28,253 nt of DNA from a virus (Duplodnaviria > Heunggongvirae > Uroviricota > Caudoviricetes). Location of the stretch: the IMG/VR virus record IMGVR_UViG_3300027608_000017; one strand, given 5' to 3'. The translations under genes and the position numbers were made by a program. This document shows, piece by piece, positions 6,250-25,755 of this stretch (within the stretch, counting starts at the first letter, position 1; every line of letters starts with the position of its first letter). Under the pieces are notes generated by a model. That model had not been told where the DNA came from. It was given only the letters and a program-made list of their open reading frames with translations, and ran no database searches.

Positions 6250-9200
6250 TTACGACACCGCGACTTTGACGCCGAACAGGAACTCGTGCGCCGTGGCGAG
6301 GTCGCGGCTGAAGTTGAACTTCTGCTTGGCTGGGTCAAACGTCTTGTTGAACGGCGACTTGACCTGATGCGGCTGGAACGGAATCCAGACGCTATGCTCG
6401 CGCTGGTTGTACTTTCCTCCGTTGTCCCGAATGCCGTCGTAGCCGTGCTGCTGGAGCGTCTGCGTCACCCAATCGGGGATGCTCGTCCAAGCGTGGGTCG
6501 TGTTGTTGGCTCTGTCGTCCGCCAGTCGCGACATGAAGTCTTTACCGCTGACGTGCCGCTTGTCCCATTGATCGGCCCCGCTCCCCTTCTTGCCTCGCTG
6601 TCGCTTCGCGGCTTGCGCGATCGCCGCGTGAACCTCGTCAGGAATCGCCGTCGTGTGGAGCGGGTTCTTGATGCTGAGGTGCATCGGGAAAATGGCCGGG
6701 TACTCGGCGTGTGGGTCGTGATGCTGCGCGCCTTCGACTCCGGCGTGCTTGAGGACATCCAGAAAACGATGCTCCTGCCCGTACAGCGAGCCGCTGTCCA
6801 GCCATGAGTCAACCAGTGCCTTCAGGGCGTTGCCGCGATGCTCCTTGATGGCGTGATCGTATCCACCGTTCCCCCTGAGATGGCCCTCGGGTCTGACCTC
6901 AAAGTTCTCGCCGGTCTCATCGTCGGTCGAAATTCGCGGCGCGAGTGCGGCAATCTTCGCCCGCTGTTCATGCGGCATCGAGTGCCAAGCGCGGTCGATG
7001 TCCATTGGCTGGCGATAGCCCTGAACGGGCAGCTTGAAGTGCTGCGCGTAATTGTCGGGCATCTCCATGCTGGTGTCTTGCTTGCCCGTGGCGTAGCCCT
7101 TGGCGATTTCCGGGTCGTCAGTGAAGAACGCCATCGGCCCCGAGGTGGCCCGCTTAGGATCGAACTTGCCGGAACCGGAGATACGATCCGCGCGTCTGGC
7201 CCCGTGGTACACCATTTTGGGCGTCCCGTCTTCGTTAATGACTTGGCTCCCGTGGTGCCACGACTTGAACTCGGGGGCTTGCGTGTAATGCACCTGCGGC
7301 GGACTGATGTCCGGCAACTTCACTCGCGACTGGCGCGGCTTCTTGGTGGGTGCTGGCGTCGCCGGGGCTGCGGGGGCGGGTTGCGGCGCGGGCTGCGGCA
7401 TCACGGGCGCTGATCCAGCGGGAACCACGGCCTCATTGCGTGCGAACTCGACTCCGGGAAGGAGCGTGCGCAGGGCGGCGAACAACGCGCGGGAAAAGCT
7501 GGTCGTGTCGTCGCCCGTGACCTTAAACGCCTTACCGGGCTTCTCGCTGATGTGGGCGTGCAGCTTGTCCAGCGGCCAATTGCTGTTCACGGTGTAGAAC
7601 ACGGCCGAGCTGCCCTTTTTGTTGATGTGAACCACGCCTTCCCGGCTCCCGATCTTCCGCTTCAGCGAGGCCAACTGAGCTTCCGTCGCTCCCTTCGACC
7701 CCCAGTGCCCGCCCCAGGTGCCGTCGTCCTTGCGGAGTGACCGGACTTCGGGGCGTTTGGTGGACTCGCGACTGCCCGACAGTTCGTGCGACGACAGCAC
7801 GCCGAACAGGTTGTCGAACGCCGCGTTGATCGACTTCCGTTCGTCACCGCTGGCTTCCGGGTACGGCTTGACGCCGAACATGCGGTACTCAGGCAAATCA
7901 TTGTGCTTCTCGTAGGCGAGGAAGTCATCGCGACCCTTGTTGCCCTTGATCTTGTCGTAGATGTACGACTCGAAGGCGCGGGCCGCCAATTCGTGGTCTT
8001 TGGCCCAGTAGTCCGCCTTGGTCCCGCGATCCATCTTCTCGGCTTCGCTCAGGAACTCGGAGCGGACGCTCTTGGTCTTCTCCTTCTGCTCGGCCGCATC
8101 CGCCAGACGGCCCTTGGATGTGGCATGGCTGGTCCGCGCCGACTCGATCTCGGCGACAAGGCCACTGAGTTTCCCGTCCGTAGCCGAGTAGCCCTTGTTG
8201 CCCCGCAGTGCCTTATGGAGATCGGACAGCTTGGCGACGTTGGCAGCCATCGAATGACCCCACTTCAGCGAGCGGCTGTTGGCGGGGGTGTCTGCGGAAC
8301 TCTGCCCGTGACGGATCATCTCGCCGCCTTCTCCCGCCAGAATCTTCGCCGACAACTCATCGACCTGCTTCAGTACCTCGTCGCTGGCCGGGAGACCGCG
8401 CTTGCCCTTGTAGTGCTGATAGCCGGTGGTCTTGCTGTAGTCGAAGGCCATCTGCCTGCGGAACTCGTCCAGCTTCCGCTGGATCGTCTCCAGATTCTGG
8501 GTGTGGTACTTCTCGTGACTGCTCGCATCTTCCTTGTACTTCATCGGCCGCGTCTTGATCGCGGACATGACCTGCGTCATCGCCTCGGCGACTTCCTTGC
8601 GGAAACCTGCCTTGGAGCCGTAAGCCCGCAGCCCACTCGATGCGTAATCGTCCTCGGCGGCCCCGCCCGTCTTGACCGTCGCGGCCCCGTCCTCGCCCGC
8701 TGTCCAGTCGCTCGACGCCTTGCCGTTCAGCCGTCCCACCCAATGGTCGAGCGCGTGCATCCACTCGTGAGCCAGCGATCCAGCCCCGTGCATCTTCGTC
8801 AGGTTGATCACGACGCCCTTGCGGTTGTAGTGCGCCCGTGCCCCAGTCAGCCCCTTGCCGTGTGAGCCGAACCCGAGACCCAAGTCCCCATCCAGTGACA
8901 GCGACTTCGCCGGAACCCCGAGGATGTCGGCCATGTCGGTGAGCGAGTCGTAGGCATGGTTCAGGATGTGTTGCCGTTCGGGCGAGTTGTTCCAGTTGCC
9001 GAACGTGACGCCCCGGAAGCCGAACTTCTGGAAGTCCGACACGTCGGCGTCTTTGCCACCCAGCCGATGCGTCTGGCCCTCGCGCACGATCTCTTCCAAG
9101 CGGGGATGGATCGAGTCCGTCAGGGCCGTCTTGGTCTCGATCAGCGACTTGGCGTTGAACGCCATGTACTTCATTGCCTCATCCTTGGACGCGAACCCGT

Positions 9201-12200
9201 CCTTCAGAACGGGCTGCTTCCGGTGAGTGATGTTGCGGTAGATGCCGTAGTTCGGCGCGTCGTCAGTGCCGTAGTTCTTGACCGAGTGTGCCCGTGCGAC
9301 TTCCGCCATCGGGATCATCGCTTCGGCTTGCTCTGGTGTGTCGAACGTCGCGATCTGCCGCTGTCGTCCGCCACCAGTGCCATCGTGGATGACCGCGTAC
9401 TTACCGTCCTTCGTCACGTTGACCGAGTAGCCCTTGCGCCAGGCGGGCTGGTCGCTTTTCTTCTTGCCGCTGGCTCCTTCGCCAACACCGGTCCACTTCT
9501 GGTCCTTCCGCGCCCCAGCCAGCTTCTCACCGAAGTCCGCGAGCCGCGACACAGTGGCGTTCTGCTCGTCTTGCGGCAGGCTCTCGGCCTCACCTTTGTC
9601 GGACGCCCCTTCGTAGCCCGGCTGATCGCCAGCCGGTGCCCTGATCGGTGCCTCGGCGGCCACGGGTGGCTTGGCGGGAGGTTCGGGTTTGTCGTCGCTC
9701 GGCCCGTAGCCCGCTGGCGTGACATCCGTGACCGACGCCCCCTTGAATCCCTTGGCTTCCATCTTCGCGACGAGGCTGGCGATGTGCTTGGCGCGGGCCT
9801 CCCCTTCTAGCCACGTCGCGTTCGATGCGGCCTTCGGTTCTTCCTTGGCAGGAGCCTCAGCCGGTGCGTCGGCGATCGACTCCAGCGGCGTCGCGTCCCC
9901 TTCCCTCTGTGGCTCATGCCCGCGTTCCCGAATCGCCTCTTCCGCCATCCGTCGAGCTTCCTTCGGATCGGGATCCGAGCGAGTGACATCCGTCCCGTCC
10001 GGCAGTGTTGCCAAGGCGTACCAGCGGTTTTTCTGCCCGTAGTTCTCCAGCGTGATCGGGATGCCGCCCGGTTTCGTTTGTTGCGGTTGCGGCGTCTCTT
10101 CGACGGTCTCCGCAGCGGCCTCTTGCGACTCGTTCTTCGGTGCGAACTCGCCCGGCTTGTACTGGTCGTGCGCCGTCTTCACCCGCACCACCTTCGACTC
10201 GTCCCACCCGAAACTCTTCTGCGACTTCACGGGCGCAACTGGCTGGTCTGCGTAGCCACCCTTGGCGTCAGCTTCAGACTCGAACGCGAACCCGACCTGA
10301 CCTTTGGAGGGCTTGATGCGGCTGAACTCGTGCGTCGCCAAGAGCCGCTTGCGCATGGTCTCGGTGGCCTTCTTGAGGTATCCGCTGACGGCCTGACGCG
10401 AGATGCCCCGCTCGTCCGCGTAGTCCGAAGCCGACTGGCCGTTGACGTGAACCCCCACGAAGGCATCTCGCTCACTGGGGGGCAGCGTCATCAGTGCCCG
10501 GTGGATGTGCTGATGCTGGCCCTCGGAGAGCTTGATGCTCTGCCGGTGCGTGTCCTTGAGGTTCGCGGCCATCGTGCTGCCGTCATCCCCGGCGATGTCG
10601 ATGCTCACCGTCTTGGCGCGCGCATTCCGTCGCGCCGACTTCTGGTGCTTGCTGTGCGCGACGTTGGTCGCCACCACATGCAGCCATGTCGAGAACTTCG
10701 CCTTGGCGGGATCGAAGCTGTCGCGGTTCTTCCAGACGCGGGTTTGCACGTCGGCAATGAAGTCGTCGAGATCAGAGTCCCGGTAGCCGAAATTCCGGCC
10801 AATGTGAGCGATCAGGCCGGACGACTTCACGAGTTGGTCGCCGACATCGCCAGCGGATGCCTCGCCCTGCACCGGAGCGGGGGCTTCCGGCTTGGGATCA
10901 CTCTTCGTCGGTGACGGTGCGGCGTGAGTCGCCTTCGGGGCGAACTCTCCGGGCTTCTTGCCGTCGTGGGCGGACGTTTCCCGCTCGATCGACTCTTCGT
11001 CGAACATCGACTTCTGATTCCGAGCGGGTTTGACGCGGGTGAATTCCAACACCACCGCCATCGCGTCGAGTTCCGCGCGCGAGAACGCCTGCACGCCTTG
11101 GGACCGCAGATGAGCCAGCCCCTGCGCGAGAGCCTCTTGGTCCGCCCCCTTGTGGTCGATGTGCAAAAAGTTGTCGTAGAGATTGACCTTCGCCCCGGAT
11201 TGCTTCAGGGACTCCACTGCGGCCCGGTGACGCTTCTGCACGCCCGTGAGTCGCACGGCACGCGGACCCACCGAATTGATGACATCCCGCTCGTGGCTCC
11301 CGGTCGTCGGCTGAATGCTGGGACCGTCGTACTGGCTGGCCACGGCCGCAATATGCTTGTGGTGCTTTGGATCGACCTGGCTCGTGTGCCGCGACAGGAT
11401 CGACGCCATCTCGCGGAAGTGATCGTCGGAGGGGTCTTCGTACTGGCTCAGTTGCACGCCACGCAGCCGATCCGCATTGAGGAAGCCGCGACCGAGCTTT
11501 TGATTGCGAGGATCACGGTCCTCGTGCGCCAGCGACCTGATGTGATGCGCGAGAACCTGCTTCTGGACATACTGGAGCGGCGTCGCCTCGGGCCGGGCTG
11601 GCGGTTTAGGGGCGGACTCCGCACCCATGTCAGGGAACGACTGTTGCCGCATCGCGCCATCCGAGAACTGCATCGCCAGCAGGAAGTTGGCCGCTTCCGT
11701 GAACTCACGGCTGAAGTGGGTCGCCCCTTCGTCGCTGTTCTGCATCCGGGCACGCAATTCGGCGGCGGCTCGCTTCTGGCCGTGCTGCTCCAGCGTGGAG
11801 ATCACCGAGGATGCCTGTGCGGCGGGAACCCGCTTCCCGGCCATGATCGCGTCCGACCACTGCTTGACCTGCTGCAACTTCTCCGGCGAGGCCGGTGCCT
11901 TCCTGAATCGGTTTGTGACAGACTGCGCGGCACGACCTACCGCATCCCCAACGGGCGCGAGCGTCCTGTCGATGGCATTGAATCCCGGCTCCAGCCGCTT
12001 GCCAACGGCGTCGGCCTTGTCCAGAAACTTGTTGCCGTACTCGTCGAACTTCTGGAAGAAGTTACCCAGCCCGCCCTCCAGATGCTCTTTCAGCTTCCCT
12101 TGCTTGGCGGCATCGAGCATCGCGGCAAAACGCTCGCGCGTCGTCGGCTTGGCGGCAGACTGCGGGTTGGACTGGTGGTAATTGCCATAGGCTTGGTCGA

Positions 12201-14220
12201 TACGTTTCCACACTTCCTCCTTGGGTATCCCCTCTTCCATCGCCCCGGCGTGTTCGAGATACTCCTTGCTGTCAGGGTGATTCAAGAACGCATTGATGGC
12301 GCTCTTTCGGGCAGCGTCGCTAAACATGCCCTTGGCGACATGAGGGCCAATCGGAGCAGACGGCGCGGACTGGTCGCCAACTGAGCCGGGCGGCGCGGTA
12401 TTTCTACCGCCGTGTTGGGTTAGCTTGGTTGCGAACAAGCCTTGATCTCGCAACTGGTCTCGCGCGTGTTCTTCATGGTCGGCGTAAATGTGCCCATTGG
12501 TTTCGAGTCCAGTGTTATCCATCGCCTCGTATTTGTAGCCGGGCTGTTTCCGTGTCGGTGGTCCCGTCTTCGCGGCCGCCCCGTAGCCCTGCGCTGTCGC
12601 TCCGTTCATGCTGCCGGAGAGAGTGCCGCTGCCGAACTCGTCGCGCATGCGATCTACTTCCGATGAAGCTGGCGCGGGCGAGGACGCTGCTGCCTTCAAC
12701 TCCGTGGCTTCAAACTTGCCGCGTCGCTCCCGTGGCTGACGAACTGCCGCCTGCTGTTGGCGCTGGCCAAGATTCCCCAAGGCGTGCATCACGTTGCCGA
12801 ACGTCGGCTGAACGAGGCCGCGCTGTTTCGATTGCCGCTGTGATTGATTCGAGGCGGGAGCCTTCGCCTGCATGTAGGGCTTGCCGTGGAAGTCCGCATA
12901 GGCGTCGAGCAGCCGCGCGTGTTGCTCCTCGGTCGAGGTCGCGTCGTTCACGCCGTGGTGTTCGATGTGCTTCTGTGCGTCGGGATGAACCGCAAACCGC
13001 CGGAGCCGATTCGGCTCAACGAGTGGCGAATACGCATCGACTGGCTTGCTCGCGCTCTTCTCGGCTGCGGTTGGCTTTGCCGATGCAATCCCGAGATACC
13101 TTGCCATGTCCGCAGGCGGCGACTCCTCTCCGGACAGCCATCTCGCCATTTGGTCGCGATGCACCGTGTTCTTGACACCCGTCTCGCGGGTGTCATCGGG
13201 TGACGATTCAATTTTCTGGCGAAACCCGTCGCGTTCTTCCTCCCTCTCGTCATCACTAAGTGAAGGGAAGTAGCCATCAGGCCGCTTCACGCCGGGCATC
13301 CTCCCTGTTGTCGGGTGGTCGCCAAGAAACTCCCGTGCATAGCGTCGATATTCGGCTGGCAGTAAAAAACCCTTGCGAGGCACCTCGCCATCCGCGACCG
13401 TGACCGGCTGCGTCGCTGGTGACACCGCCACTGGCGAGGATGGTGTCTGAGCTTGCGGCTGGGCGGAACTGGAGGCCATTCGCCGAGGGTCACGCCGTCC
13501 AGTAGCTGCCCGCGATGCCATCGCCTGCGACGGCAACACCGCCGCTTGAGTCGGCAAGGAGGGATGCGTGGCGTCAGGCGAGGCCGCTGGCGGTGTCGCA
13601 GCAGCGGCTGGTACGGCAGCTTGACTTGCGTGATGCGCCATGAAGGCCGCTTCCGCCCGCTTGTTCCATTCCTTCTTGTCGATCGAGGGGTCGTTGGCTC
13701 CGTGAGCCTGCATCAGCGACGCCGCTGCGGGGTGCGTGGCAAACGCGGCAATCGCCTTCCTGCGTTGCTCGGGCTGGCCATGCGAAACGAACCCCGGCAC
13801 CGGCACGTTCGCTGCCATCTTCGCGTTCTCGTCCACCCCGGCCTGAACCGAAGCGGCGGCATTTACCGCAGATTGTGCCGCCTTCTGGGCCTCATGCGCC
13901 TTGAGGTGTGCGCCGATTTGATCGGCGGCCTGACCGAACTGCGGGCGTTTCACCGGATGCGACTGCTGCGAAAGAATTATCTGCGCCGCCCTCATGGCGT
14001 GAATGTCGCCATCGAAAGCCTTGCCGATGTCGCCGCTGTGCGATGCGATCTGGTCAACGTGCGATTGCGCGTGCGGGATGCCGCCCCTAAACGGCGCTGC
14101 CACGGGGGCTGCTGCGGCAGCCGCCGGAGTCTTGGCGACCTGCTCTCCCGGCAAAGCAAACTCAATCGGATACGAAAATAGCGCACGCGCGGCAGCGCGA
14201 TCTTCAGGCGACAGATTCAT
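6250..14220 (-). CDS. Giant polyvalent protein B (2656 aa): 3 helical repeats, PilC/GspF-N-like motif, ECF sigma factor, LPD5-like region, HExxH peptidase, LPD1-like region, ART-PolyVal
   Basis: Uninterrupted 8-kb ORF with recognisable motifs: DFGEKLAGARKD, FRGVTFGNW, SLAHEWMHALD, ELAARAFESY, VYHG...FFT...GYDGI. Confidence 0.9.
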   Translation of the reverse strand: MNLSPEDRAAARALFSYPIEFALPGEQVAKTPAAAAAAPVAAPFRGGIPHAQSHVDQIASHSGDIGKAFDGDIHAMRAAQIILSQQSHPVKRPQFGQAADQIGAHLKAHEAQKAAQSAVNAAASVQAGVDENAKMAANVPVPGFVSHGQPEQRRKAIAAFATHPAAASLMQAHGANDPSIDKKEWNKRAEAAFMAHHASQAAVPAAAATPPAASPDATHPSLPTQAAVLPSQAMASRAATGRRDPRRMASSSAQPQAQTPSSPVAVSPATQPVTVADGEVPRKGFLLPAEYRRYAREFLGDHPTTGRMPGVKRPDGYFPSLSDDEREEERDGFRQKIESSPDDTRETGVKNTVHRDQMARWLSGEESPPADMARYLGIASAKPTAAEKSASKPVDAYSPLVEPNRLRRFAVHPDAQKHIEHHGVNDATSTEEQHARLLDAYADFHGKPYMQAKAPASNQSQRQSKQRGLVQPTFGNVMHALGNLGQRQQQAAVRQPRERRGKFEATELKAAASSPAPASSEVDRMRDEFGSGTLSGSMNGATAQGYGAAAKTGPPTRKQPGYKYEAMDNTGLETNGHIYADHEEHARDQLRDQGLFATKLTQHGGRNTAPPGSVGDQSAPSAPIGPHVAKGMFSDAARKSAINAFLNHPDSKEYLEHAGAMEEGIPKEEVWKRIDQAYGNYHQSNPQSAAKPTTRERFAAMLDAAKQGKLKEHLEGGLGNFFQKFDEYGNKFLDKADAVGKRLEPGFNAIDRTLAPVGDAVGRAAQSVTNRFRKAPASPEKLQQVKQWSDAIMAGKRVPAAQASSVISTLEQHGQKRAAAELRARMQNSDEGATHFSREFTEAANFLLAMQFSDGAMRQQSFPDMGAESAPKPPARPEATPLQYVQKQVLAHHIRSLAHEDRDPRNQKLGRGFLNADRLRGVQLSQYEDPSDDHFREMASILSRHTSQVDPKHHKHIAAVASQYDGPSIQPTTGSHERDVINSVGPRAVRLTGVQKRHRAAVESLKQSGAKVNLYDNFLHIDHKGADQEALAQGLAHLRSQGVQAFSRAELDAMAVVLEFTRVKPARNQKSMFDEESIERETSAHDGKKPGEFAPKATHAAPSPTKSDPKPEAPAPVQGEASAGDVGDQLVKSSGLIAHIGRNFGYRDSDLDDFIADVQTRVWKNRDSFDPAKAKFSTWLHVVATNVAHSKHQKSARRNARAKTVSIDIAGDDGSTMAANLKDTHRQSIKLSEGQHQHIHRALMTLPPSERDAFVGVHVNGQSASDYADERGISRQAVSGYLKKATETMRKRLLATHEFSRIKPSKGQVGFAFESEADAKGGYADQPVAPVKSQKSFGWDESKVVRVKTAHDQYKPGEFAPKNESQEAAAETVEETPQPQQTKPGGIPITLENYGQKNRWYALATLPDGTDVTRSDPDPKEARRMAEEAIRERGHEPQREGDATPLESIADAPAEAPAKEEPKAASNATWLEGEARAKHIASLVAKMEAKGFKGASVTDVTPAGYGPSDDKPEPPAKPPVAAEAPIRAPAGDQPGYEGASDKGEAESLPQDEQNATVSRLADFGEKLAGARKDQKWTGVGEGASGKKKSDQPAWRKGYSVNVTKDGKYAVIHDGTGGGRQRQIATFDTPEQAEAMIPMAEVARAHSVKNYGTDDAPNYGIYRNITHRKQPVLKDGFASKDEAMKYMAFNAKSLIETKTALTDSIHPRLEEIVREGQTHRLGGKDADVSDFQKFGFRGVTFGNWNNSPERQHILNHAYDSLTDMADILGVPAKSLSLDGDLGLGFGSHGKGLTGARAHYNRKGVVINLTKMHGAGSLAHEWMHALDHWVGRLNGKASSDWTAGEDGAATVKTGGAAEDDYASSGLRAYGSKAGFRKEVAEAMTQVMSAIKTRPMKYKEDASSHEKYHTQNLETIQRKLDEFRRQMAFDYSKTTGYQHYKGKRGLPASDEVLKQVDELSAKILAGEGGEMIRHGQSSADTPANSRSLKWGHSMAANVAKLSDLHKALRGNKGYSATDGKLSGLVAEIESARTSHATSKGRLADAAEQKEKTKSVRSEFLSEAEKMDRGTKADYWAKDHELAARAFESYIYDKIKGNKGRDDFLAYEKHNDLPEYRMFGVKPYPEASGDERKSINAAFDNLFGVLSSHELSGSRESTKRPEVRSLRKDDGTWGGHWGSKGATEAQLASLKRKIGSREGVVHINKKGSSAVFYTVNSNWPLDKLHAHISEKPGKAFKVTGDDTTSFSRALFAALRTLLPGVEFARNEAVVPAGSAPVMPQPAPQPAPAAPATPAPTKKPRQSRVKLPDISPPQVHYTQAPEFKSWHHGSQVINEDGTPKMVYHGARRADRISGSGKFDPKRATSGPMAFFTDDPEIAKGYATGKQDTSMEMPDNYAQHFKLPVQGYRQPMDIDRAWHSMPHEQRAKIAALAPRISTDDETGENFEVRPEGHLRGNGGYDHAIKEHRGNALKALVDSWLDSGSLYGQEHRFLDVLKHAGVEGAQHHDPHAEYPAIFPMHLSIKNPLHTTAIPDEVHAAIAQAAKRQRGKKGSGADQWDKRHVSGKDFMSRLADDRANNTTHAWTSIPDWVTQTLQQHGYDGIRDNGGKYNQREHSVWIPFQPHQVKSPFNKTFDPAKQKFNFSRDLATAHEFLFGVKVAVS
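6300..7310 (-). other. ART-PolyVal-like ADP-ribosyltransferase domain with an insertion (protein B C-terminus)
   Basis: TQAPEFKSWHHGSQVINEDGTPKMVYHG...MAFFTDDPEIAKGYA...HLSIKNPL...HGYDGI...FQPHQVKS. Confidence 0.75.
7795..9545 (-). other. LPD5-like / zincin HExxH / LPD1-like module
   Basis: DFGEKLAGARKD at ~9500-9545, HEWMH at 8755-8769, YWAKDHELAARAFESY...ERKSINAAFDNLF at ~7800-8010. Family numbers are recalled, not searched. Confidence 0.65.
10345..10848 (-). other. ECF-type sigma-70 domain (regions 2 and 4) inside protein B
   Basis: Region 2: DDFIADVQTRVWKNRDSFDPAKAKFSTWLHVVATN. Region 4: ALMTLPPSERDAFVGVHVNGQSASDYADERGISRQAVSGYLKKATETMRKRL. Confidence 0.8.
12421..12540 (-). other. PilC/GspF N-terminal-like motif inside protein B
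   Basis: GYKYEAMDNTGLETNGHIYADHEEHARDQLRDQGLFATKL. Confidence 0.65.
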
Positions 14221-14264
14221 GCTCGGCCCCGAATCCAGTGGAAATGTCTTGACGATTCCGCCAG

Positions 14265-14292
14265 ATCATACCACGCACGGGGCGGCAAACAA
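14265..14292 (-). promoter_or_regulatory. Candidate sigma70 promoter for protein B (extended -10 TGGTATGAT, weak -35 TTGTTT)
   Basis: Lies in the 88-bp gap upstream of ATG 14220. Confidence 0.45.
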
Positions 14293-14308
14293 TTCGAGGT
14301 TTTCCAGA

Positions 14309-14533: not shown

Positions 14534-14550
14534 CCGCCAAACACCTTTCC

Positions 14551-14826: not shown

Positions 14827-14856
14827 GGTGTGATCGTATGGCGGCGAGAACCGAAG

Positions 14857-17800: not shown

Positions 17801-20800
17801 GACTTTGCGTCACGTTTTTCTGACGCAAACCCCGACGCCTCGTGCTGCTCGCGCTGCTCGTCCGTCAGGTAGAACCGCACGTTGTGGTGTTCCGGCCCCG
17901 TGCGGCTGATGGCATCCGCATCCACCAGCGACTTGAGGGCGCGTGTCGTCGGGTTAGCCAGTGGGTCGAGCGCGTCGTGATCCGTGTGCCCCGTGTGGTG
18001 GTGGATGTCGGGCAGGCCAAATTGCCCGCCGTTCATCAGGTAGTTCTTGATCTGGTGATGCAGCTTGTCCGCGAACCGCCCTGCATCGTCGCGCGGGTGG
18101 GCCTCTTCGTCCCAATCGAACGCGCCTTGGCCGGTGGCGGGTTTGCGCGAGAACTGGTTCGTCTCTGCGTCGTGAGGAATCGTAATTCCGAACTTCTGTT
18201 GCAGTGGGACGACTCCACCAGACTCATCCCGATCAAATGCGTAGGCGGACTTGCCTTCGTAGTTGGCGGGGTGGCGAATCATCGCCTCGCGTGTCCGGAA
18301 GTCCTTGTTTCGACCAGCGTTTGCGTGGTATCCGAGTCCGCCATAGAACCGCTTCAACCTGCCGACCGACGACGCACCGAATGAATCGTCCGGCGTCAAC
18401 AAGACGCGCATTCCGTGCTTGTCGGCAAACCCATGCAGGTCATTCATGTAGGCCGTCCCTCGCCCTTGTCCGCGATGCTCCTTGGGCACCTTGACTGAAT
18501 GGAGTGTGATGTCTCCATTCTTGGCGCTCGCGAAACTTTCGACACCCGCCTCGCCCCACTTATCTCGGTGCGACTTGAGGGCGACGTTCGTTGCGTGGTC
18601 AACGTGTTTTTGCGCCGCGTGATTATCTCCGCTTGCCACTGCGTCGGAGTATCTCTGCTCGAATGGATGCGGAACCTCACTGTCACGCGACATCTGGACG
18701 GTTGACGGCGGACGTTGCGAAACCTGATACGTGGGTTTCCCAGACCACTTTTCTAGCTGCTCCCGCGCGGCGTCGTGCATCCCCCACTCGTCGTGTCCTT
18801 CCGGGTCTTGGGTCTCCGTGGCACCGCCGAACCCCTTCGGTTTGATGCTCAACCCCCTCGCGGACGAGTGTAGTTTATGCTGCGACTGCCAGGCTTCCTC
18901 TGGCGTCATGCCCTTCGAGTCTAAGACATCATGGAGCATCTGCCTGTATTTCGAGGCTTTGTCGAGTTGCTTCGGCCTCGTGTATTTGATGCCGTGCTTC
19001 TCAGCCAGTCTGCTCAGTTCGCTGAAGTCGTCGTCTTCGCGGTTGTGGCCATACGCGCCGTCCCGTTCAGGATCGAGCGCACTCACGCTGCCGACATCGT
19101 AGATCGCCGCGTTGCCGTTGTGGTCGAGTCCGGCCTGAACTTGATCGCCCAGCCTGTACCCGGCGCTGTGCATCCCCGAGAGCGTGTCCTGCAACTGCTG
19201 GATGTGCTTTTCGGTGAGCGGCGATGTCGTGTCCACCTTGGGCATCACAGCGAACGACCGCCCGTCATGGTTGACCCCGTACTGCGGCAGAATCCCGAGA
19301 ACGCCCTTGGAGCGGAGGTGCTTCGTGGCCTTGACTGAGTTGTCGATGATCGCGTTCGCTGCGTCTGGACTGCGTAGCCCGTTGCCCTCATGGTACGGAG
19401 TGATGACCGCCGCCTTCACGACCGTGCCGTTTCCGGCATCGTAGACCGCGTTGTCGTTCCCCTTGCCGATGTACTTCCCGCCGCCCGACAGGACGTGGTC
19501 GAGTGTCTTGTGGCCCGAGTTGGCGGGATGGCCCAGGTGCCCGTGGAGTTCATCCAAAAATCGCTCGACGTGCTGCGTTGGCGCGCGGAACTTCGACCAG
19601 TCCTTCCCGGCGTGGTCGAGGGTCACAAAATGCGTCAATCCGTCAGTCTTGCCCGTCTTGAGCGTCGCTCGGAACGGCGCGTTGGTGCGAGTCTCGGGGA
19701 TGTCCACTTGCCGCGTGCCGTCGTGTGCCGTCTCAATCTGCGGGCGTTTCGACTTCACGGCGTCGAACGGCAATTCCTGCTGCCCCGGCAGTGGCGATCG
19801 CCCGAACTCGACCGGCCCGAAGTCGCGGCTGAAGGTGATGCGGTTGTCCTGCGGGTCGAACGCCCCGCTGTTGCCGATGGCGGACTTGATCTGGTGGGGA
19901 TGGAAGGCGATGTGAAAGTCGTGTTCGCCAGATCGAGGGGCAAGCGGAGCGTCCATCTGCGTCTGCTTAATTGTGATTCCATCGAAGCCCTTCTTCGCCA
20001 TGTGCTGCCTGAAGTTCGCGAAGTCGTCTCGCGTCAGATGGCGAGGATGCGTGGCGGTGCTGCCGAAATGCTGTTGCACGACGGGAAGAATCCAGTCCCG
20101 CTTCATGGCGTGAAACGGGTCTTTCTCAAGGTCGCCACGCGTGTCACCGTCGTTGTAAACGCGAACTCGCTGGCCGTTGAGGTTCTCGTGCCTGTAGTCG
20201 CCCGCGTGCGGCTCGATAATGAGCGGCTTCTTAACGCTCAGGTAGACCGGCTTGATGTGCTGCCCGTGGCCTTGTCCGAACTCGCCAGCGACCTCTGGTT
20301 TGTTTGTGAAATAGTGCCCAAGCGCCGTTGTGCTGGCGGATGTCGTCCCGCCGAGCGCGTCGTCACTGAACTCGTCAAACAGCGCGTTCGTCCCGTGATA
20401 GACCACCTTGGGCGTCCCGTCTTCGTGAACCACATGGCTCCCCTCGTGCCACTTCTTGAACGCTGGTGTCTGCGTGTGGTGGACCTGACTCGGCGGATCA
20501 GCGCTAAACTCCACCGGCCCAAAGTCGCGGCTGAAGTTGGTCGAGTTTTCGCTCACCGTGTCGATTTGCTTCGGGTGAAACGCGACGATTTCATTGCGGC
20601 GAGCCACCCCCTCTGGTGACACCGAGTGGGAGATAACGCCGTCGTGTCCGTGTTTCGTCAGTGCATCCGTGAACTTCTGTGGCCCGTAGTGAAGGATCGC
20701 GAGTCGCAAGTTGCCCTTCTGCTTCAAGGCCGCAGAGAACTCAGGGTCTCCGATGGCGTTATCAACATGCGAGTTTTCCGCTGCCTCTCGTTTCTTCCAT

Positions 20801-23800
20801 TCGGGGTGCAGGGAGGATGTCTCGTGGATATTAAGTGGGGTTTGTAAGCGAACCTTCGCAGCAATGACTCGGTTTCCCCACTGCTTTGGATTCCCACCCT
20901 TGGCATAGAAGTAGTGACCGAATCCGAGATGCCCAAGGTTTCCGCTTCTGGCCCCCGCGCGGGATGCGTCGAAACCACTAAAACTTGCGTTCGTGCCGTG
21001 GTAAACAACAGACGGCGAACCGTCTGGCTCAACGAGCGCCCCGTGGTCCGAGACGCTGAACTCCACCGGCCCGAAGTCGCGGCTGAAGGTGATCCGGTTG
21101 TCCTGCGGGTCGAACGCCCCGCTGTTGCCGATGGCTGACTTAATCTGGTGGGGATGAAAGGCCGCGATTGTCTTGTTTTCACCGCTCCCGAGTATCATCC
21201 CGTCGTGCCCCTGCTTCTCCAGATGCGCGCGGGCATCCGCGTGTCCGTGTGCCCCAAACTGGCGGATCAATGGGCCGAGGCTCTCGGCGCGGTACGGATT
21301 CTTCAGGCTCAAATAGGCGGGGATCACATTGCCGCCCTCTTCGGCGTTCGTGGTGCCAGCGTATTCGTTCGCGAGCGATGGTGTTTCTGAGAAAAAGAAC
21401 GAGCCGCCCACGCTGTGCCAGCCGGGGCTTGTTTTGCTTTTGTCGAATGCTTCAATCGGAGACCGCGTCCCGTGGTAGACCACCTTCGGCTTTCCGTCCT
21501 CGTGAACCACATGGCTCCCCTCGTGCCACTTCTTGAACGCTGGTGTCTGCGTGTGGTGGACCTGACTCGGCGGATCAGCGCTAAACTCCACCGGCCCGAT
21601 CTCATCCAGTGACCGACTGAACTGGCCGACAGAACCGCCCACATGCCCGCGTCGATCTCGAAACGTCGCGCGGTCGTGGCCGTGTGTCGCCGTACCCAGA
21701 AAGCGCGAGTTCCCGTCGCGGAAGGTCAGTTGGTTCCCGTTCCGTGTGACGTAGCCGATGACGTGGCCTTCCCGGCTGCGGACCACTCCCCGACGTGACG
21801 GATCGCGGGCGAGGCGGGCGAGTGAGGCGAGACCATCCGCGCGACTGCCAGGCATGTCCTGAATCACCGCCTGAATCGCCGAGACCGAGACGCCGAGCGC
21901 CGCCGCAATCGACTCGACGGAATCGGAGCGGCTCCACGAACTCGGGTCGAAGGAGGTCTCGGCGGTATCTCCGGCCGGACTCCACTCGTCGGAATCAGAC
22001 AGCGACTCGTCCTCACTGTCGTCGCGGAAGTGAATCCCCTCTGTGCTGAAATCGCGAGGACGGCCACCGACGACCATTGATGCGGCTAGGTCCGCGATCT
22101 CACTGGATGTGCGCGACGGCATCTGCGCTGACCCTTCGCGAATCAGTTCCACCATCTTCCGCTGGTTGTCGGTGTCCCCGTATTGCCAGCCAAGCTCCGG
22201 GTGCGTGCGGAGCAGTGAGTCAGCCTTAATGTCCCCGTCGGGAATCTCGTCCTCGACGCTGCGGATCGTGTGCGCGTTCAAGCCCGTCAATCGCCGCGCC
22301 TCAGCCTTAGCGGCCTCCAATGGGAAGTTCGCCTCCGCGTAGGCCACCATCGCCCTGGGGATCGACGCAATCACCTCGTCGATGTCGGCCCCGTACACCT
22401 TGGCCGCGCGTCGAACCGCGCTGTCTTCCTCGGCCCCACGCTCCCATAGCCGCCGTTCCACTTCCTTGTGCCGGGCGATGTCTTGCTGACGCTGGTAGTC
22501 CGGGCGTGTCTGGCGGAGGTAGTCGTCCAGTTGCGCTTTCACCGTGTTGCGGGCCTCAACCAGCGGCTCCAGCTTATTGTTGAGCGCCTCCTTCACTCCT
22601 GCCTGCGCAATCTCGGCGCTGGAGTAGCCATTGGCCTTCAGGGCGGCGATGTCCACTCTTTTGGAGAGGAACGCATCGCGCAGTTCGCGGATGCGGGCGA
22701 TTTCGGCTTCCATCTGCTCAAGCTGAGGCTCCAGCTTCTCACCCGCTGCGTGGTCTGGCTGCGGCCTGTCCCCCAACCAGCTTGGGCGAGGCAGATCGTT
22801 CCCGAGAATCTGACTCAGGGGATTCTGCTTCCAGAACTGATAAGGCTTGGCTCGCGGGTCCAGTTCGGGCGCGGGCTGAAACGTCTCGGCGGGCTGCTGC
22901 GCAAGCCGCTCCTCGGTCTCCGCAGTGCGGGCGTCGTCCTCGATCCGCAGTTCGTGGCCGTTGCCGCCGTCTCGCGGGACGGAGTGCGCGGCAGTCACCG
23001 GCCGCGACGTGATCGGCAACCCCGTCTGGTCGTCGAACCCACGCGCCACGTCGATCGCCGAGACCGTCGGCACGGGATGCGTCTTCGCTGCCGCCATGTC
23101 GCGACGATAGGCCGCCACATGCTCGTCGCTGCCGAGCGCCTTGGCTTGGGCGGGTGTCAGTTCATGCCCGCGCACCCCCGCCGCGTAGGCGTGATGCTGG
23201 CGAGCTTCCCGTCGTTCCCGAGATTCGTCCGACTCGTCGATCAGGTCTTCGACTTCCTCGCCCAGCAGGCCGGGACAGCCCTTGTCGATCACCCCGTCGT
23301 CGTCCACATGCACGGATGAGCCGCCGACTTTCGTCCAGCCCGATTCCCCGTTGTCCGTCGGGGCTTTCTTCTTTTTCCCGGCCTTTTCTTCTTCCTTGAG
23401 AACGTCGTGGTGCGTCCGCTTCTTGTCGATCAGGCGTCGAAACGGCTGCGTCGGCAGGGTGTGCGACCGCCCGAATTCGACAGGACCGAACTCGTCATCG
23501 CGGGAGAAGGATTGCGTCTCGTGATCTTTCGCGGCACGCATGATGTCCCCGTAGTTGAGTGGGTTGCCCGTCTCGGGGTTGGATGTGCCGTGCCAGCCCG
23601 TGATCGACTTCGCGCCAGACATCTGCGCGGCGAGAAGTCTTCGTCGATTCGAGGACTGCATCACGCCGGGCTTACCATCCACGTCGTACACGCTGATCGG
23701 GGGCGGCTTGTGGCCATCCTTGAGCCAGTTGACGTAGGCCGTGACGGAGCCGCTTTTCTTCATGTGGGCGCGTTCGTAATCCGCCGACTGCTCATGTTCG

Positions 23801-24339
23801 CTGCTATTGAGCTTTGAGGGATCGAACTCTCTCAGGAAATCCACATAGGCTTCGTTGGTGTTACCCGTGGAGTGTCGAGGCCAGCCGATTCTCGCCGTCC
23901 CGAGTGGATGATCCTCGTAGTCAAGCGTCGGCCCCACGACATCGTGCATCTGGCTGCTGGGGGCGACATATCTGGCGCGCCGCGCCAGTTCGTCCGGATG
24001 CGTCTCCAGCACACTCTTGACGGCGGCGGGCGGGATGTTGAACCGCTGGGCAACAGCGTGATGCACCGGCGAGAACTCTTCGGCCTGTTCGTGAAACGCG
24101 AACTCCCCCTGCCCCGGCAGCGGCTTGGGCTTCTTCGCCTCCTCATCGGCGATTGACTCCAGCAGTGACGGCCGGGGAGCCACTGGCGTCTTCGGACGAC
24201 CCGGCGACGGCGCGCGTGGGGCGGCACTCGCCCCAAACAGCGACTTCTGCCCCGGCAGTGCGCCTTGGGAGAACTCCACAGAATCGCCCGTACAGTTCTG
24301 AAAAACAGCGGCGAGGGCGTCGAGATCGAGGTGGCTCAT
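14857..24339 (-). CDS. Giant polyvalent protein A (3160 aa): ParB-like, 3x ART-PolyVal, kinase, GNAT, wHTH-like, Zn site, KTSC
   Basis: Uninterrupted 9.5-kb ORF with domain motifs separated by FSR..GPVEF linkers. Confidence 0.9.
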   Translation of the reverse strand: MSHLDLDALAAVFQNCTGDSVEFSQGALPGQKSLFGASAAPRAPSPGRPKTPVAPRPSLLESIADEEAKKPKPLPGQGEFAFHEQAEEFSPVHHAVAQRFNIPPAAVKSVLETHPDELARRARYVAPSSQMHDVVGPTLDYEDHPLGTARIGWPRHSTGNTNEAYVDFLREFDPSKLNSSEHEQSADYERAHMKKSGSVTAYVNWLKDGHKPPPISVYDVDGKPGVMQSSNRRRLLAAQMSGAKSITGWHGTSNPETGNPLNYGDIMRAAKDHETQSFSRDDEFGPVEFGRSHTLPTQPFRRLIDKKRTHHDVLKEEEKAGKKKKAPTDNGESGWTKVGGSSVHVDDDGVIDKGCPGLLGEEVEDLIDESDESRERREARQHHAYAAGVRGHELTPAQAKALGSDEHVAAYRRDMAAAKTHPVPTVSAIDVARGFDDQTGLPITSRPVTAAHSVPRDGGNGHELRIEDDARTAETEERLAQQPAETFQPAPELDPRAKPYQFWKQNPLSQILGNDLPRPSWLGDRPQPDHAAGEKLEPQLEQMEAEIARIRELRDAFLSKRVDIAALKANGYSSAEIAQAGVKEALNNKLEPLVEARNTVKAQLDDYLRQTRPDYQRQQDIARHKEVERRLWERGAEEDSAVRRAAKVYGADIDEVIASIPRAMVAYAEANFPLEAAKAEARRLTGLNAHTIRSVEDEIPDGDIKADSLLRTHPELGWQYGDTDNQRKMVELIREGSAQMPSRTSSEIADLAASMVVGGRPRDFSTEGIHFRDDSEDESLSDSDEWSPAGDTAETSFDPSSWSRSDSVESIAAALGVSVSAIQAVIQDMPGSRADGLASLARLARDPSRRGVVRSREGHVIGYVTRNGNQLTFRDGNSRFLGTATHGHDRATFRDRRGHVGGSVGQFSRSLDEIGPVEFSADPPSQVHHTQTPAFKKWHEGSHVVHEDGKPKVVYHGTRSPIEAFDKSKTSPGWHSVGGSFFFSETPSLANEYAGTTNAEEGGNVIPAYLSLKNPYRAESLGPLIRQFGAHGHADARAHLEKQGHDGMILGSGENKTIAAFHPHQIKSAIGNSGAFDPQDNRITFSRDFGPVEFSVSDHGALVEPDGSPSVVYHGTNASFSGFDASRAGARSGNLGHLGFGHYFYAKGGNPKQWGNRVIAAKVRLQTPLNIHETSSLHPEWKKREAAENSHVDNAIGDPEFSAALKQKGNLRLAILHYGPQKFTDALTKHGHDGVISHSVSPEGVARRNEIVAFHPKQIDTVSENSTNFSRDFGPVEFSADPPSQVHHTQTPAFKKWHEGSHVVHEDGTPKVVYHGTNALFDEFSDDALGGTTSASTTALGHYFTNKPEVAGEFGQGHGQHIKPVYLSVKKPLIIEPHAGDYRHENLNGQRVRVYNDGDTRGDLEKDPFHAMKRDWILPVVQQHFGSTATHPRHLTRDDFANFRQHMAKKGFDGITIKQTQMDAPLAPRSGEHDFHIAFHPHQIKSAIGNSGAFDPQDNRITFSRDFGPVEFGRSPLPGQQELPFDAVKSKRPQIETAHDGTRQVDIPETRTNAPFRATLKTGKTDGLTHFVTLDHAGKDWSKFRAPTQHVERFLDELHGHLGHPANSGHKTLDHVLSGGGKYIGKGNDNAVYDAGNGTVVKAAVITPYHEGNGLRSPDAANAIIDNSVKATKHLRSKGVLGILPQYGVNHDGRSFAVMPKVDTTSPLTEKHIQQLQDTLSGMHSAGYRLGDQVQAGLDHNGNAAIYDVGSVSALDPERDGAYGHNREDDDFSELSRLAEKHGIKYTRPKQLDKASKYRQMLHDVLDSKGMTPEEAWQSQHKLHSSARGLSIKPKGFGGATETQDPEGHDEWGMHDAAREQLEKWSGKPTYQVSQRPPSTVQMSRDSEVPHPFEQRYSDAVASGDNHAAQKHVDHATNVALKSHRDKWGEAGVESFASAKNGDITLHSVKVPKEHRGQGRGTAYMNDLHGFADKHGMRVLLTPDDSFGASSVGRLKRFYGGLGYHANAGRNKDFRTREAMIRHPANYEGKSAYAFDRDESGGVVPLQQKFGITIPHDAETNQFSRKPATGQGAFDWDEEAHPRDDAGRFADKLHHQIKNYLMNGGQFGLPDIHHHTGHTDHDALDPLANPTTRALKSLVDADAISRTGPEHHNVRFYLTDEQREQHEASGFASEKRDAKSDGKPEEKPQAGPAGLTKREAIAKASANKSGDKGLSHDEMVHATYLYTGTAPQGWSAVAVKGMKEVEGDKGEGVTVPEFEMPSGYKPVPVVWDGGPQSACCGLCGHDIKNIYYIQNDAEKWTMGVGSECVTKFGEGDSGERLAKKAVWAANRDFLSNVWETFDTLGHRFGDTDKHGQHHTHLGSSAPFWKIMAESGVKNHNEITAAQRKAFESAAAKINTVYGQLKKLLYNSSGAPVTHAGKKIVSRNYIDATRGYKDSTAHYDASKDAAITAWTKRNAEEARKLIGEVDEILRSLPESKKAEKPQSFSREDDFGPVELFGDSEEFGPVEFARKPAKGQVAFDFESPVESHLDDAPGENVATKQDQLFDVQESDVPPEHHEEAKALSAKHGGGEVRRLKNGDWQLRAPIGGKVSEVNGVFYIGGRFMPIHGIDSQAAKKLKPKREKSKGDLFTPPKPNENGRQREKRVEMTPDEIAAEKERREEQRQWNEIASGPLGRLLDLKAEPRYEGATPILDEWLRLAEKIGKEGIAKLKDRLEPEVHSSMEAAWKPIIERDAAITDEEWKKSHYGSRRSADDIEWEKNELHNRADRWASGKPRIYKAHEKLVPGSHYVQELLSELMNDTHKQDKGGFIPRLKKYSDMLAALVPAPLISPAEARQHGYFGNKFDGRTAEGKKVKAGDGWVKKNADGKYETFTDEQVRDAIKPAEFSRSLDSIGPVEFAADSEEFSRDLADFAPVEFGLMDWFRKKPTPPTPQTPPSSAPAGDEPEQVHESKWSPEVPVESSNVHSYSWEKQGNEGQGNMIVRYKNKEGGSGPVYRYIGTPKSVYEGMEAAPSKGGFVWDRLRVRGSKVAHQYPFSLAGTGATDYIPRAASLRRGFKGEHYIERSFQGRKSELAPGTTTGRPAERLDGYDPGKLTFKPSPPSPSLPKPATPQPPAPSKTSSLISKVASFFRKPKTPREFSRDEIEAFELMLADAAARD
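15265..15470 (-). other. KTSC domain
   Basis: VESSNVHSYSW...IVRYK...VYRYIGTPKSVYEGMEAAPSKGGFVWDRLR. Confidence 0.75.
18265..18565 (-). other. GNAT acetyltransferase domain
   Basis: ITLHSVKVPKEHRGQGRGTAYM (motif A)...LKRFYGGLGY. Confidence 0.8.
19080..19500 (-). other. Protein-kinase-like domain
   Basis: YIGKGNDNAVY (Gly loop), VVK, MHSAGYRLGD (catalytic Asp), IYDVG (DFG-like). Confidence 0.65.
19804..19907. repeat. 104-bp direct repeat, copy A (copy B at 21058-21161)
   Basis: 5 mismatches, all at synonymous third codon positions. Encodes FHPHQIKSAIGNSGAFDPQDNRITFSRDFGPVEF. Confidence 0.95.
20423..20520. repeat. 98-bp perfect direct repeat, copy 1 (copy 2 at 21500-21597)
   Basis: Identical DNA encoding GPVEFSADPPSQVHHTQTPAFKKWHEGSHVVHE. 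Confidence 0.95.
21058..21161. repeat. 104-bp direct repeat, copy B
   Basis: See 19804-19907. Confidence 0.95.
21500..21597. repeat. 98-bp perfect direct repeat, copy 2
   Basis: See 20423-20520. Confidence 0.95.
23590..23800 (-). other. ParB/Srx-like domain (degenerate)
   Basis: KDGHKPPPISVYDVDGKPGVMQSSNRRRLLAAQMSGAKSITGW resembles P.PI.V......[DN]G.[HR]R..AA...G...I. Confidence 0.5.
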
Positions 24340-24345
24340 CGGGTG

Positions 24346-25326
24346 TCAGTCCTGCTGGGTATCTTCTCGGAACCAGTCTTCAAGCGTCGCTGTGACATCG
24401 CCAACCGGCAGGATGATCTGGTTGGCTGATGTGGCCCACGAGAATCCGCCGCTGCTCGCGTTGTGACGCCTCTCTTCAGATTCGGGGACGTAATGGTCGG
24501 AGACGCGGAACCTGTGCCCCGTGTCGCGATTCTTGTAATAGCGGGAAGACCCGCTTTGGTTCTCCAATTCGTAGCCTCTAGCGACGAGCCAGCCGTTCGC
24601 CTCTTGCTGCTGCCGAGATAGCTTCTCGGATTCCCGCCGCTCTGCCTCGGCACCAATTAGCGCATTGCCCATTATGTGCCGATAGTGCATTCCAGCGCGG
24701 CCGGATTTCATGACCTCGTAGGCAGCTTCTTTGACGGGTCCGGTTGCGTTTTCCATGACGTGCGAAAGTGCCGAGTCGCTCGCCGAGCGAAGCGATTCGG
24801 ATGCTGCGGAGACTTTGTTTTTCCGCCCGCTCGCCAGCGAGGCGGCTTGATTGGCGGAATCTAGGGCTGACGAAAACTCCCCCGCATTCTCCGGCTGCCC
24901 CCGTGGATGATCGGCTTCGTTCCACGCCGAGAACTCCACCGGCCCGATCTCGTCGAGGGAGCGAGAGAAGGACTGCGGAGTGGCGGGCTGCGTTCGGCTG
25001 AACTGGACGCAGCGCAAGTGACGCGCCGCTTCGTGTCGTTCACGGATGCCGTCCATGAGCGCCGAAATTCGCACCAAAGGATCATGGTCGCGACTGAACT
25101 GCCGCCCACCGTTCACGATCAGGCCGATCCGGTCGATCAGGTTCAATCGCTCCGGCGGCAGGACATCGGGATTCCGTCCGTTGTGCCAGACCGCCTTGTC
25201 GTAGGCGTGCATCTCGTTTCCGAGTTTCAGGTACGCCGCCTTCTGCTGCGGGTCATCGCGCGCAACCTCCCAGAGGGCTTCATAGTCCTCTCCATGAAAA
25301 ATCGGATACGTGTCTTCGCCAGCCAT
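24346..25326 (-). CDS. 326-aa protein sharing the FSR..GPVEF linker and WNEADHPR..GEF motif with the giant proteins
   Basis: AAGGA RBS before ATG 25326. The listed TTG start at 25383 overlaps a promoter-like sequence. Confidence 0.8.
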   Translation of the reverse strand: MAGEDTYPIFHGEDYEALWEVARDDPQQKAAYLKLGNEMHAYDKAVWHNGRNPDVLPPERLNLIDRIGLIVNGGRQFSRDHDPLVRISALMDGIRERHEAARHLRCVQFSRTQPATPQSFSRSLDEIGPVEFSAWNEADHPRGQPENAGEFSSALDSANQAASLASGRKNKVSAASESLRSASDSALSHVMENATGPVKEAAYEVMKSGRAGMHYRHIMGNALIGAEAERRESEKLSRQQQEANGWLVARGYELENQSGSSRYYKNRDTGHRFRVSDHYVPESEERRHNASSGGFSWATSANQIILPVGDVTATLEDWFREDTQQD

Positions 25327-25355
25327 TTTGCGTCCTTGAGTTCGTGAATCTGGCA

Positions 25356-25383: not shown

Positions 25384-25392
25384 ACGCGGGAT

Positions 25393-25695: not shown

Positions 25696-25755
25696 CGCCT
25701 GGTTCCTGTCTGTCGTTGAAAGTGCCAATAAAACGTCTTGAAAGTTCTGCTGTAA

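Follow-up and report, generated by a model that had tools for sequence, protein, structure and literature searches.

A two-part peptide joint delimits exchangeable cassettes in the polyvalent proteins of a tailed phage and recurs in its predicted protease-scaffold protein

The window analyzed here, a stretch of 28,253 nucleotides from the IMG/VR virus record IMGVR_UViG_3300027608_000017, corresponds to positions 25973-54225 of one 112,930-bp contig of a tailed phage, which encodes a lambda-E-like major capsid protein, a D-like decoration protein, a Mu-like portal, PhoH and DnaB. On its minus strand, which carries all window features described below, are the genes for two giant proteins, P1 (2656 aa, 6250-14220) and P2 (3160 aa, 14857-24339), and for a smaller protein, P3 (24346-25326; 326 aa from an ATG, with the open reading frame extending to a TTG at 25383 and then encoding 345 aa). 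In these polyvalent proteins and those of the same phage lineage, exchangeable cassettes are delimited by a two-part joint that is non-random and conserved at the level of the peptide. The first half of the joint is a module-terminal [F/M/W]-S-R, and the second is an acidic/hydrophobic stretch of 2-14 residues that ends in x-E-F and is followed by a small residue and R or A; FSRDFGPVEFSA is an example of a linker of this type. As the same peptide recurs in the phage's own head-maturation protease/scaffold protein, the joints are probably sites at which cargo is cut. The full proposal, that the joints are head-maturation-protease sites and the xEF endings mark leader peptides of head-packaged polyvalent cargo, is put forward tentatively.

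A preliminary description of this stretch had counted 18 FSR tripeptides in the three proteins, and translation of the open reading frames gave the same number (10 in P2, 5 in P1 and 3 in P3, whether the last is taken as 326 or 345 aa), at nucleotide positions that agree to within 1 nt. By chance, as estimated from 2000 residue shuffles per protein, 0.58, 0.40 and 0.07 copies, respectively, would be expected, and none of the 2000 shuffles equalled the observed counts. Nine of the 18 copies are followed by [GA]PVE[FL] within 8 residues and 13 by EF within 14, in line with the earlier statement that most of them lead into [GA]PVEF, xVEF or LEF. PVEF is present in 8 copies in the 3160-aa protein versus 0.04 expected, and the 8 copies of GPVEF found in a six-frame translation of the genome are all in the frame of P1-P3. 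In the six-frame translation of the 112,930 bp, FSR followed after 0 to 12 residues by EF (FSR.{0,12}EF) gave 13 matches, confined to the genes of P1, P2, P3, a third giant (described below) and the protease-scaffold protein.

The preliminary description had further held that the peptide rather than the DNA is conserved, and the codons agree with this. FSRSLDEIGPVEFSA occurs at 24925-24969 in P3 and at 21577-21621 in P2 as 15 identical residues with 8 differing codons, among them switches between TCN and AGY codons for Ser, and over the 18 FSR copies the Ser codons are divided equally between AGY (9) and TCN (9). Identical peptides with different codons, together with this 9/9 split, indicate that selection acts on the peptide. 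Recent DNA duplicates are limited to the arms of the ADP-ribosyltransferase (ART) cassettes (153 nt at 90% and 105 nt at 95% identity). Residues of the motif are also better conserved than the rest of the protein (72% versus 49%, 87% versus 71% and 93% versus 84%).

Mapping of the joints onto Pfam domains showed that they lie at domain boundaries, as had been proposed, with no FSR inside a Pfam match. In P2, three ART-PolyVal domains (E 3e-63; best match aa 1306-1494) and a KTSC domain (aa 2962-3021) were found, and in P1, Sigma70_r2/r4 (aa 1135-1285), LPD1 (aa 2064-2144, E 1e-16) and an ART-PolyVal domain from aa 2329. A GNAT domain, also proposed earlier, is present in P2 as a weak match (E 0.005-0.04), and a kinase that had been proposed was backed neither by Pfam (E<=1) nor by sequence searches of the PDB. 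An AlphaFold2 (AF2) model of P2 residues 1255-1530, built on 35 ART cassettes, has a confident ART core between two linkers that are both coil (pLDDT about 46-59), and within these linkers the ...RITFSR tail alone is moderately confident.

P2 carries 10 FSR, one WSR and one MSR. After the joint FSRDDEFGPVEF (23473-23508, aa 278-289), WSR (21928-21936, aa 802) is replaced by FSR in relatives, in which it closes a different upstream module that by eye is ParB-like. The ART domains are set off by FSRSLDEIGPVEF ahead of the first (21583-21621, aa 907-919) and by three copies of FSRDFGPVEF, at the border of the first and second (21058-21087, aa 1085-1094), at the border of the second and third (20506-20535, aa 1269-1278; coil in the AF2 model, pLDDT 46-57) and after the third (19804-19833, aa 1503-1512; GPVEF with pLDDT <50). 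MSR (18685-18693, aa 1883) and FSR (18145-18153, aa 2063, followed by KPATGQGAFDWDEEAHPR) form the upstream and downstream edges of the GNAT cassette. Further downstream are a triple joint, FSREDDFGPVELFGDSEEFGPVEF (16810-16881, aa 2487-2510), a double joint, FSRSLDSIGPVEF-AADSEE-FSRDLADFAPVEF (15583-15678, aa 2888-2919), and a C-terminal FSR with a 17-residue acidic, amphipathic tail (14860-14919, aa 3141-3160). The five FSR of P1 are found alone at 11707-11715 (aa 836), in FSRAELDAMAVVLEF ahead of the sigma-factor cassette (11041-11085, aa 1046-1060), 14 aa past sigma-70 region 4 (10318-10326, aa 1299), in FSRALFAALRTLLPGVEF ahead of the ART domain (7444-7497, aa 2242-2259) and in the C-terminal FSRDLATAHEF, where FSR is again followed by a 17-residue tail (6253-6312, aa 2637-2656). 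An MSR inside the ART region of P1, at aa 2563, is probably a chance occurrence. In P3, a conserved N-terminal domain of ~95 aa ends at the first of three FSR (25090-25098, aa 96); the second (24994-25002, aa 128) is followed by the joint FSRSLDEIGPVEF (24931-24969, aa 139-151) and then by the module start WNEADHPR. The C-terminal cassette of P3 is variable.

Comparison with relatives showed that these joints are the borders at which cassettes are exchanged. P2 homologues of 3324, 3162 and 2759 aa were found on contigs reached through the P3 homologues with 81% and 72% identity, and among the relatives at 81%, 72% and ~50% identity, the borders of gained, lost or swapped cassettes fall exactly after xSR or VEF. 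This applies to the GNAT cassette, to three ART cassettes and to two other modules, one of 340 aa and one ParB-like. In P2, the GNAT cassette is bounded exactly by ...VQMSR and ...NQFSR; it is absent from one relative (L012), in which an ART cassette directly follows the FSR matching P2 aa 2487 and the 340-aa module directly follows the last VEF of the joint at aa 2487-2510. In the same relative, the halves of the double joint enclose an ART cassette; in P2 this joint is an "empty site". P3 homologues of 327, 457 and 687 aa each carry different cassettes. In a further relative (L018), the homologue of P1 aa 1058-1143, the segment that follows the joint ahead of the sigma-factor cassette, is a stand-alone gene for a protein of 448 aa, which opens with a 22-residue leader ending in NPVEF, followed by ARKPAKNQ....

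A leader of about 20 aa ending in xEF is common to this stand-alone gene, to P1, to P2 and to a third giant of 2655 aa (protein P0004), which is encoded outside the window at genome positions 91768-99735. The leader of P1 (14158-14220, 21 aa) ends in PIEF, followed by AL, and a P1 homologue (L018:14909-21553) opens alike with a leader ending in SIEF; the leader of P2 (24271-24339, 23 aa), which is kept in relatives, ends in DSVEF, followed by SQ..PGQKSLF. That of the third giant ends in HEF-SA. The long second halves of joints look like amphipathic helices and like the first 21-23 residues of these three proteins. Within the third giant, a joint of the P1/P2 type, FSREETATEF-AR-KAKPAAGQKSMF, is found at aa 304 and another FSR 85 aa from the C-terminus, and its DarA_C domain is a domain of a head-packaged protein of phage P1 (a virus, not to be confused with the protein P1). 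P1 and P2 each combine several unrelated effector or associated domains on a single polypeptide, and the gene content of the contig identifies them as phage-encoded. Judged by their domain content, P1, P2 and the third giant are polyvalent cargo-type proteins in the sense of Iyer, Burroughs, Anand, de Souza and Aravind (2017; PMC5512222), who predicted that polyvalent proteins are delivered with the DNA and processed into units by metallopeptidase (MPTase) domains.

The candidate reader of the joints is encoded outside the window at genome positions 7390-9048 (probable start 7738, i.e., 7738-9048), just upstream of the genes for the decoration (HDPD-like) and capsid (E-like) proteins, and this gene order is conserved in two relatives (L036 and L038). 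The protein has no Pfam or PHROG match and 645 metagenomic homologues; Mu-like_Pro (PF10123) was not matched by the query and was matched by 1 of 50 homologues at E 1.8e-4. In an alignment of 50 homologues (21-59% identity), H54, G80, S114 and H135 are invariant, and H54, S114 and H135 presumably serve catalysis. The AF2 model has a mean pLDDT of 78, with residues 1-157 mostly >90 and the remainder helical or disordered, which is what a scaffold would be expected to show. Structure matches of residues 1-157 are nearly all, in the top rows, herpesvirus proteases or T4 gp21 (1vzv, the VZV protease, Z 9.6 over 112 aa at 2.9 A; 5jbl and 4v08, both Z 9.0), and the match to T4 gp21 has Z 9.0. The model describes an assemblin-fold protease fused to a scaffold.

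The scaffold part of this protein holds FSR three times, MSR once and EFSA once, where 0.04 FSR would be expected and none of 5000 shuffles reached 3. LAFSR lies 2 residues past the protease domain and TEFSR 34 residues before the C-terminus. The sites at aa 309, 365 and 400 are conserved as [M/L/F]-Ser in 119 aligned homologues, with Ser in 104, 108 and 68 of 120 sequences, respectively; alignment A2 was too diverse for a pattern search. In the wider family, FSR is lacking in 136 of 150 representatives, and multiple FSR occur in this clade only, while GPVEF is found 0 times in 117 other ART-bearing giants (about 380,000 residues). The sites are written as (E)FSR in this clade alone, and the signature common to its scaffold and its cargo is therefore clade-specific. 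The earlier suggestion of a cut after Glu, by the rule known from T4 and phiKZ, gained no specific support, since the conserved core in the 119 protease-scaffold homologues is [Met/Leu/Phe]-Ser and Glu is not conserved. If assemblins are taken as a guide, a cut next to the Ser would seem at least as likely as one at VE/F. When the protease domain (alignment A3) was modelled in complex with a P2 linker of 45 aa, the score was 0.01, which is evidence neither way.

In the mechanism that we propose, P1, P2, P3 and the third giant would be polyvalent cargo built from exchangeable cassettes, each ending in [F/M/W]-S-R and most of them starting after an xEF stretch, and both halves of the joint would be read by the phage's own assemblin-fold Ser-His-His protease-scaffold enzyme. 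Packaging, cleavage, the position of the scissile bond and injection are the steps that we infer. The giants would enter the procapsid, with the xEF leaders, or the tails that follow the last FSR at the C-terminus, possibly serving as scaffold-like targeting peptides; the protease would cut the joints, probably beside the Ser or the small residue after Phe, and the modules freed in this way, among them the ADP-ribosyltransferases, the sigma factor and the acetyltransferase, would enter the host along with the injected DNA. In its boldest form, the proposal would have the giants be true phage polyproteins that are cut in the procapsid, between Phe and S-R and between E-F and the small residue, by a hitherto unstudied assemblin-fold protease-scaffold clade (645 metagenomic homologues, none in cultured phages), yielding >20 effectors, including an injected sigma factor and four ADP-ribosyltransferases, and the ...PDIRFSR tail of ART cassettes be a general "cut here" mark across many phage lineages; in this form we hold it to be doubtful.

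Parts of this arrangement have counterparts in known systems. In herpesviruses, the assemblin-scaffold fusion (pUL26-type) has release (R) and maturation (M) sites that are cut between Ala and Ser in (V/L)-x-Ala-Ser. The phage protein resembles it in its fold (VZV protease, Z 9.6), its invariant His, Ser and His and its N-terminal protease on a helical scaffold, as well as in a Ser site directly after the protease domain and another about 34 aa from the C-terminus; we take the placing of LAFSR and TEFSR in the scaffold to recall the R and M sites. It differs in belonging to a bacterial virus, in having Phe, Met or Leu rather than Ala before the Ser and in the proposed reuse of the site in non-scaffold cargo.

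The internal proteins IPI-III and Alt of phage T4 carry a capsid-targeting sequence and are cleaved by gp21 after (L/I)-x-Glu. Common to both systems are an N-terminal leader of head cargo that ends in a proposed protease site, an ADP-ribosyltransferase and a protease with the fold of gp21 (Z 9.0). The leader here, of about 20 aa, ends in xEF and a small residue, not in the LxE of the gp21 motif I/LxE (10.64898/2026.03.04.709575); the residue two before the Glu is P, S or E, and the arrangement is analogous only. Further differences from T4 are the conserved core in the scaffold of the protease itself, which is [MLF]-Ser in place of Glu, and the internal repetition of the site, up to 12 times in one protein, which would make the substrates true polyproteins.

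Ejection proteins of phiKZ-like phages (SPN3US gp245) are also large head-packaged proteins that are matured by a prohead protease at short motifs. These motifs reportedly end in Glu (AxE or S/A/G-x-E). Those phages are jumbo myoviruses with ejection proteins that are not ART-PolyVal polyvalent proteins, whereas the phage studied here has a 113-kb genome, a lambda-E-like capsid and a Mu-like portal.

We know of no repeated joint motif in the Dar system of phage P1. Its large anti-restriction proteins DarA, DarB and DdrB are packaged into the head, and at least DdrB is processed first (PMC5512222); the third giant shares DarA_C with that system, and the homology is limited to this one domain. 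The giants resemble the polyvalent proteins of PMC5512222, which string together unrelated effector domains (ART-PolyVal, LPD1, DarA_C, GNAT) in the same way. That paper does not contain the word "linker" and names no inter-domain peptide, whereas here a two-part joint is tied to a protease-scaffold gene, and the sigma-70 module and KTSC found here are likewise words absent from it.

Several observations weigh against a head-protease site. The FSR half of the joint is old and widespread; ART-PolyVal cassettes of other giants end in GNxGxF-DPxxPDI[R/T]-[F/Y/A]-S-[R/...], several other giants have 6-9 FSR each versus about 0.5 expected, and FSR also terminates non-ART modules, e.g., ...GQPMFSR in three lineages. 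By sequence comparison, the FSR half is widespread across many lineages and GPVEF is specific to this one. One FSR-rich giant (P0172, 3560 aa, L033:10001-20683), with nine FSR, seven of them as ...PDIRFSR, has as neighbors KfrB/DNA methylase, DUF87/TrwB-like and ankyrin genes and a complete Wadjet (JetABCD) cluster, and its host element is probably a plasmid or an integrative element rather than a phage and may be conjugative and capsid-less; FSR therefore cannot everywhere be a prohead-protease site. The giants here lie in a gene string with DnaB and the gene related to DUF1376 proteins, in an order kept in relatives, with the head module elsewhere, so that early or middle expression would fit better than late expression. 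The capsid and decoration proteins were found to have no site, and a tblastn search with the protease-scaffold protein against 50,697 cultured-phage records gave no match. Scaffold site 365 lies in a confidently folded helical hairpin of the AF2 model, and its conservation may be structural; a hydrophobic residue and Ser ahead of a helix is a common helix cap, and [MLF]-Ser could be a helix N-cap with a hydrophobic staple. Co-occurrence of the signature in scaffold and cargo concerns a single clade. Five IMG/VR records with protease homologues had no ART-PolyVal, and the metagenome contigs with P0014 and P0016 were too short to hold giants. Finally, P1 itself has a motif of a possible processing enzyme of the kind predicted by Iyer et al., HEWMH (8755-8769, aa 1818), which no profile search confirmed. 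The preliminary description had read the three proteins as head-packaged polyproteins cut at the linker, or the linker as a docking signal. The polyvalent cargo, the selected peptide placed at joints, the same peptides in the head protease-scaffold protein and the xEF leaders speak for that view; the FSR half is not peculiar to this system and the genes are outside the head module, which speaks against it.

The wide spread of FSR, found outside this lineage, could also be explained by a different enzyme. A zincin metallopeptidase inside the polyvalent proteins, of which HEWMH may be the motif, could cut the joints in the infected or recipient cell, independently of a capsid. This would agree with the MPTase domains that Iyer et al. 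(PMC5512222) predict to split polyvalent proteins into units, with FSR-type cassette ends in many lineages, possibly including conjugative elements, and with the operon that the giants share with replication genes. The HExxH lies 246 aa upstream of LPD1, and the P1 homologue of a relative also has LPD1. However, Pfam (E<=1) and PDB sequence searches gave no metallopeptidase match, an Atlas search gave LPD1 only, and such an enzyme leaves unexplained both the clade-specific peptides in the head protease-scaffold protein and the xEF-ending leaders; we consider it quite unlikely. Nor would cassette gain and loss exactly at the joints, near-identical DNA of the ART arms and the widespread ...PDIRFSR tail, which travels with ART cassettes, need any dedicated reader if the joint were an inert, evolvable linker, a standard "plug" that survives in-frame shuffling of cassettes. 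However, the 15-residue peptides that are identical despite 8 differing codons, and the even division of Ser codons (9/9), mean selection on the exact peptide and not on flexibility or DNA homology, and an inert linker is not expected in a scaffold protein or at the ends of N-terminal leaders, so that this explanation seems to us unlikely.

The joint might instead be a repeated docking or packaging signal that stays uncut, with an FSR-capped amphipathic helix ending in VEF that would bind scaffold, capsid interior or portal and provide many low-affinity anchors. Long joints (FSR-AELDAMAVVLEF, FSR-ALFAALRTLLPGVEF and FSR-DEIEAFELML) are indeed helix-like and resemble the giants' N-terminal leaders, the MSR and one FSR of the scaffold are at helix starts in the AF2 model, and giants and scaffold alike have an acidic, amphipathic C-terminal tail. 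The commonest joint, FSRDFGPVEF, is nevertheless too short and too rich in Gly and Pro for a helix and is modelled as coil, and the strict placement at every cassette border, which a processing site needs, is unneeded for docking; we judge a docking function to be improbable. Cutting of the joints by the head-maturation protease remains our preferred, tentative explanation.

The FSR half is also found in a cultured phage. The Pseudomonas phage F116, a podovirus, encodes a protein of 1649 aa (gp60, L023:24251-29200) in which an ART-PolyVal domain lies between ...GQAFSR and ...PDILFSR, and its gp59 (L023:17839-24228) has ...AEFSR. F116 could serve as an experimental model for the FSR half.

The gene string of the giants runs along the minus strand almost without gaps and consists of a 354-aa gene (whose homologue in relatives bears DUF1376), DnaB, a 111-aa gene, P3, P2, a 91-aa gene and P1. 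P1, P2 and P3 share one frame (6250-25383), with only 6 nt between the stop codon of P3 and the start of P2. A fusion of P3 and P2 by stop-codon read-through was rejected; it is unlikely because this identity of frame is not kept in the relative L012, which has both genes in different frames. A scan of 13900-28253 for promoters and terminators found sites no more often than in shuffles and was uninformative on the timing of expression. PHROGs gave no match for P3, the small neighboring open reading frames or the protease-scaffold protein, an IMG/VR search with P3 found the generic W-x-E-x-x-HPR word only, and the back-translated exact FSRDFGPVEF pattern had 0 matches in IMG/VR.

Modules that follow a joint often open with one of two further words, KP-x-x-GQ-x-x-F-x-F-[DE] or W-[DN]-E-x-x-HPR. 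The former, or NQKSMF/GQKSLF, stands right after joints in P2 (first nucleotides 24114, 19785, 18132 and 16791) and P1 (11019 and 10302). It resembles the bacterial sliding-clamp-binding motif, QL[SD]LF, and by analogy could be a second short linear motif that, e.g., tethers released modules to the host clamp. The latter word, in the form W-[DN]-E-x-x-HPR-x(3,5)-G-x-F, opens modules at 18114 (P2 aa 2076), at 24924 (P3 aa 154) and at aa 356 of the third giant, and it also trails ART tails in unrelated giants (P0167 and P0174). A third word, [ST]AHD-x-x-KPGEFAPK, occurs twice in P1, at 10956 and 10158 (aa 1089 and 1355), where it flanks the sigma-factor cassette, and is found again in the opening part of the stand-alone homologue (L018:13126-14472). 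Outside the window, a 102-aa protein (genome positions 102717-103025, minus strand) starts with the leader-like MTDTTIEAVDLAREFSR, ending in EFSR, and may on this resemblance be another small cargo protein. Just ahead of its low-complexity C-terminal tail, the Mu-like portal contains a near-copy of the joint FSRDF..EF, namely FQSRDFEF at aa 354-361 of 423 (L002:2895-2918; genome positions 20895-20918). The portal of Mu, gpH, is processed, and FQSRDFEF may, by analogy, mark where this portal is trimmed at its C-terminus.

That polyvalent proteins and head cargo are processed is established or predicted; no defined joint common to polyvalent proteins and an assemblin-type protease-scaffold turned up in the literature that was searched. 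Phages and conjugative elements commonly encode polyvalent proteins, whose processing was predicted in 2017 with no processing site defined; a concrete joint peptide and a candidate reader make this prediction directly testable. Gains and losses of cassettes at the joints show how polyvalent proteins diversify. If the proposed cutting of the joints is true, the motif would allow giant phage open reading frames to be split into functional units in silico and would pick out head cargo in metagenomes, and a tailed phage would be using a polyprotein strategy with a herpesvirus-like protease-scaffold layout.

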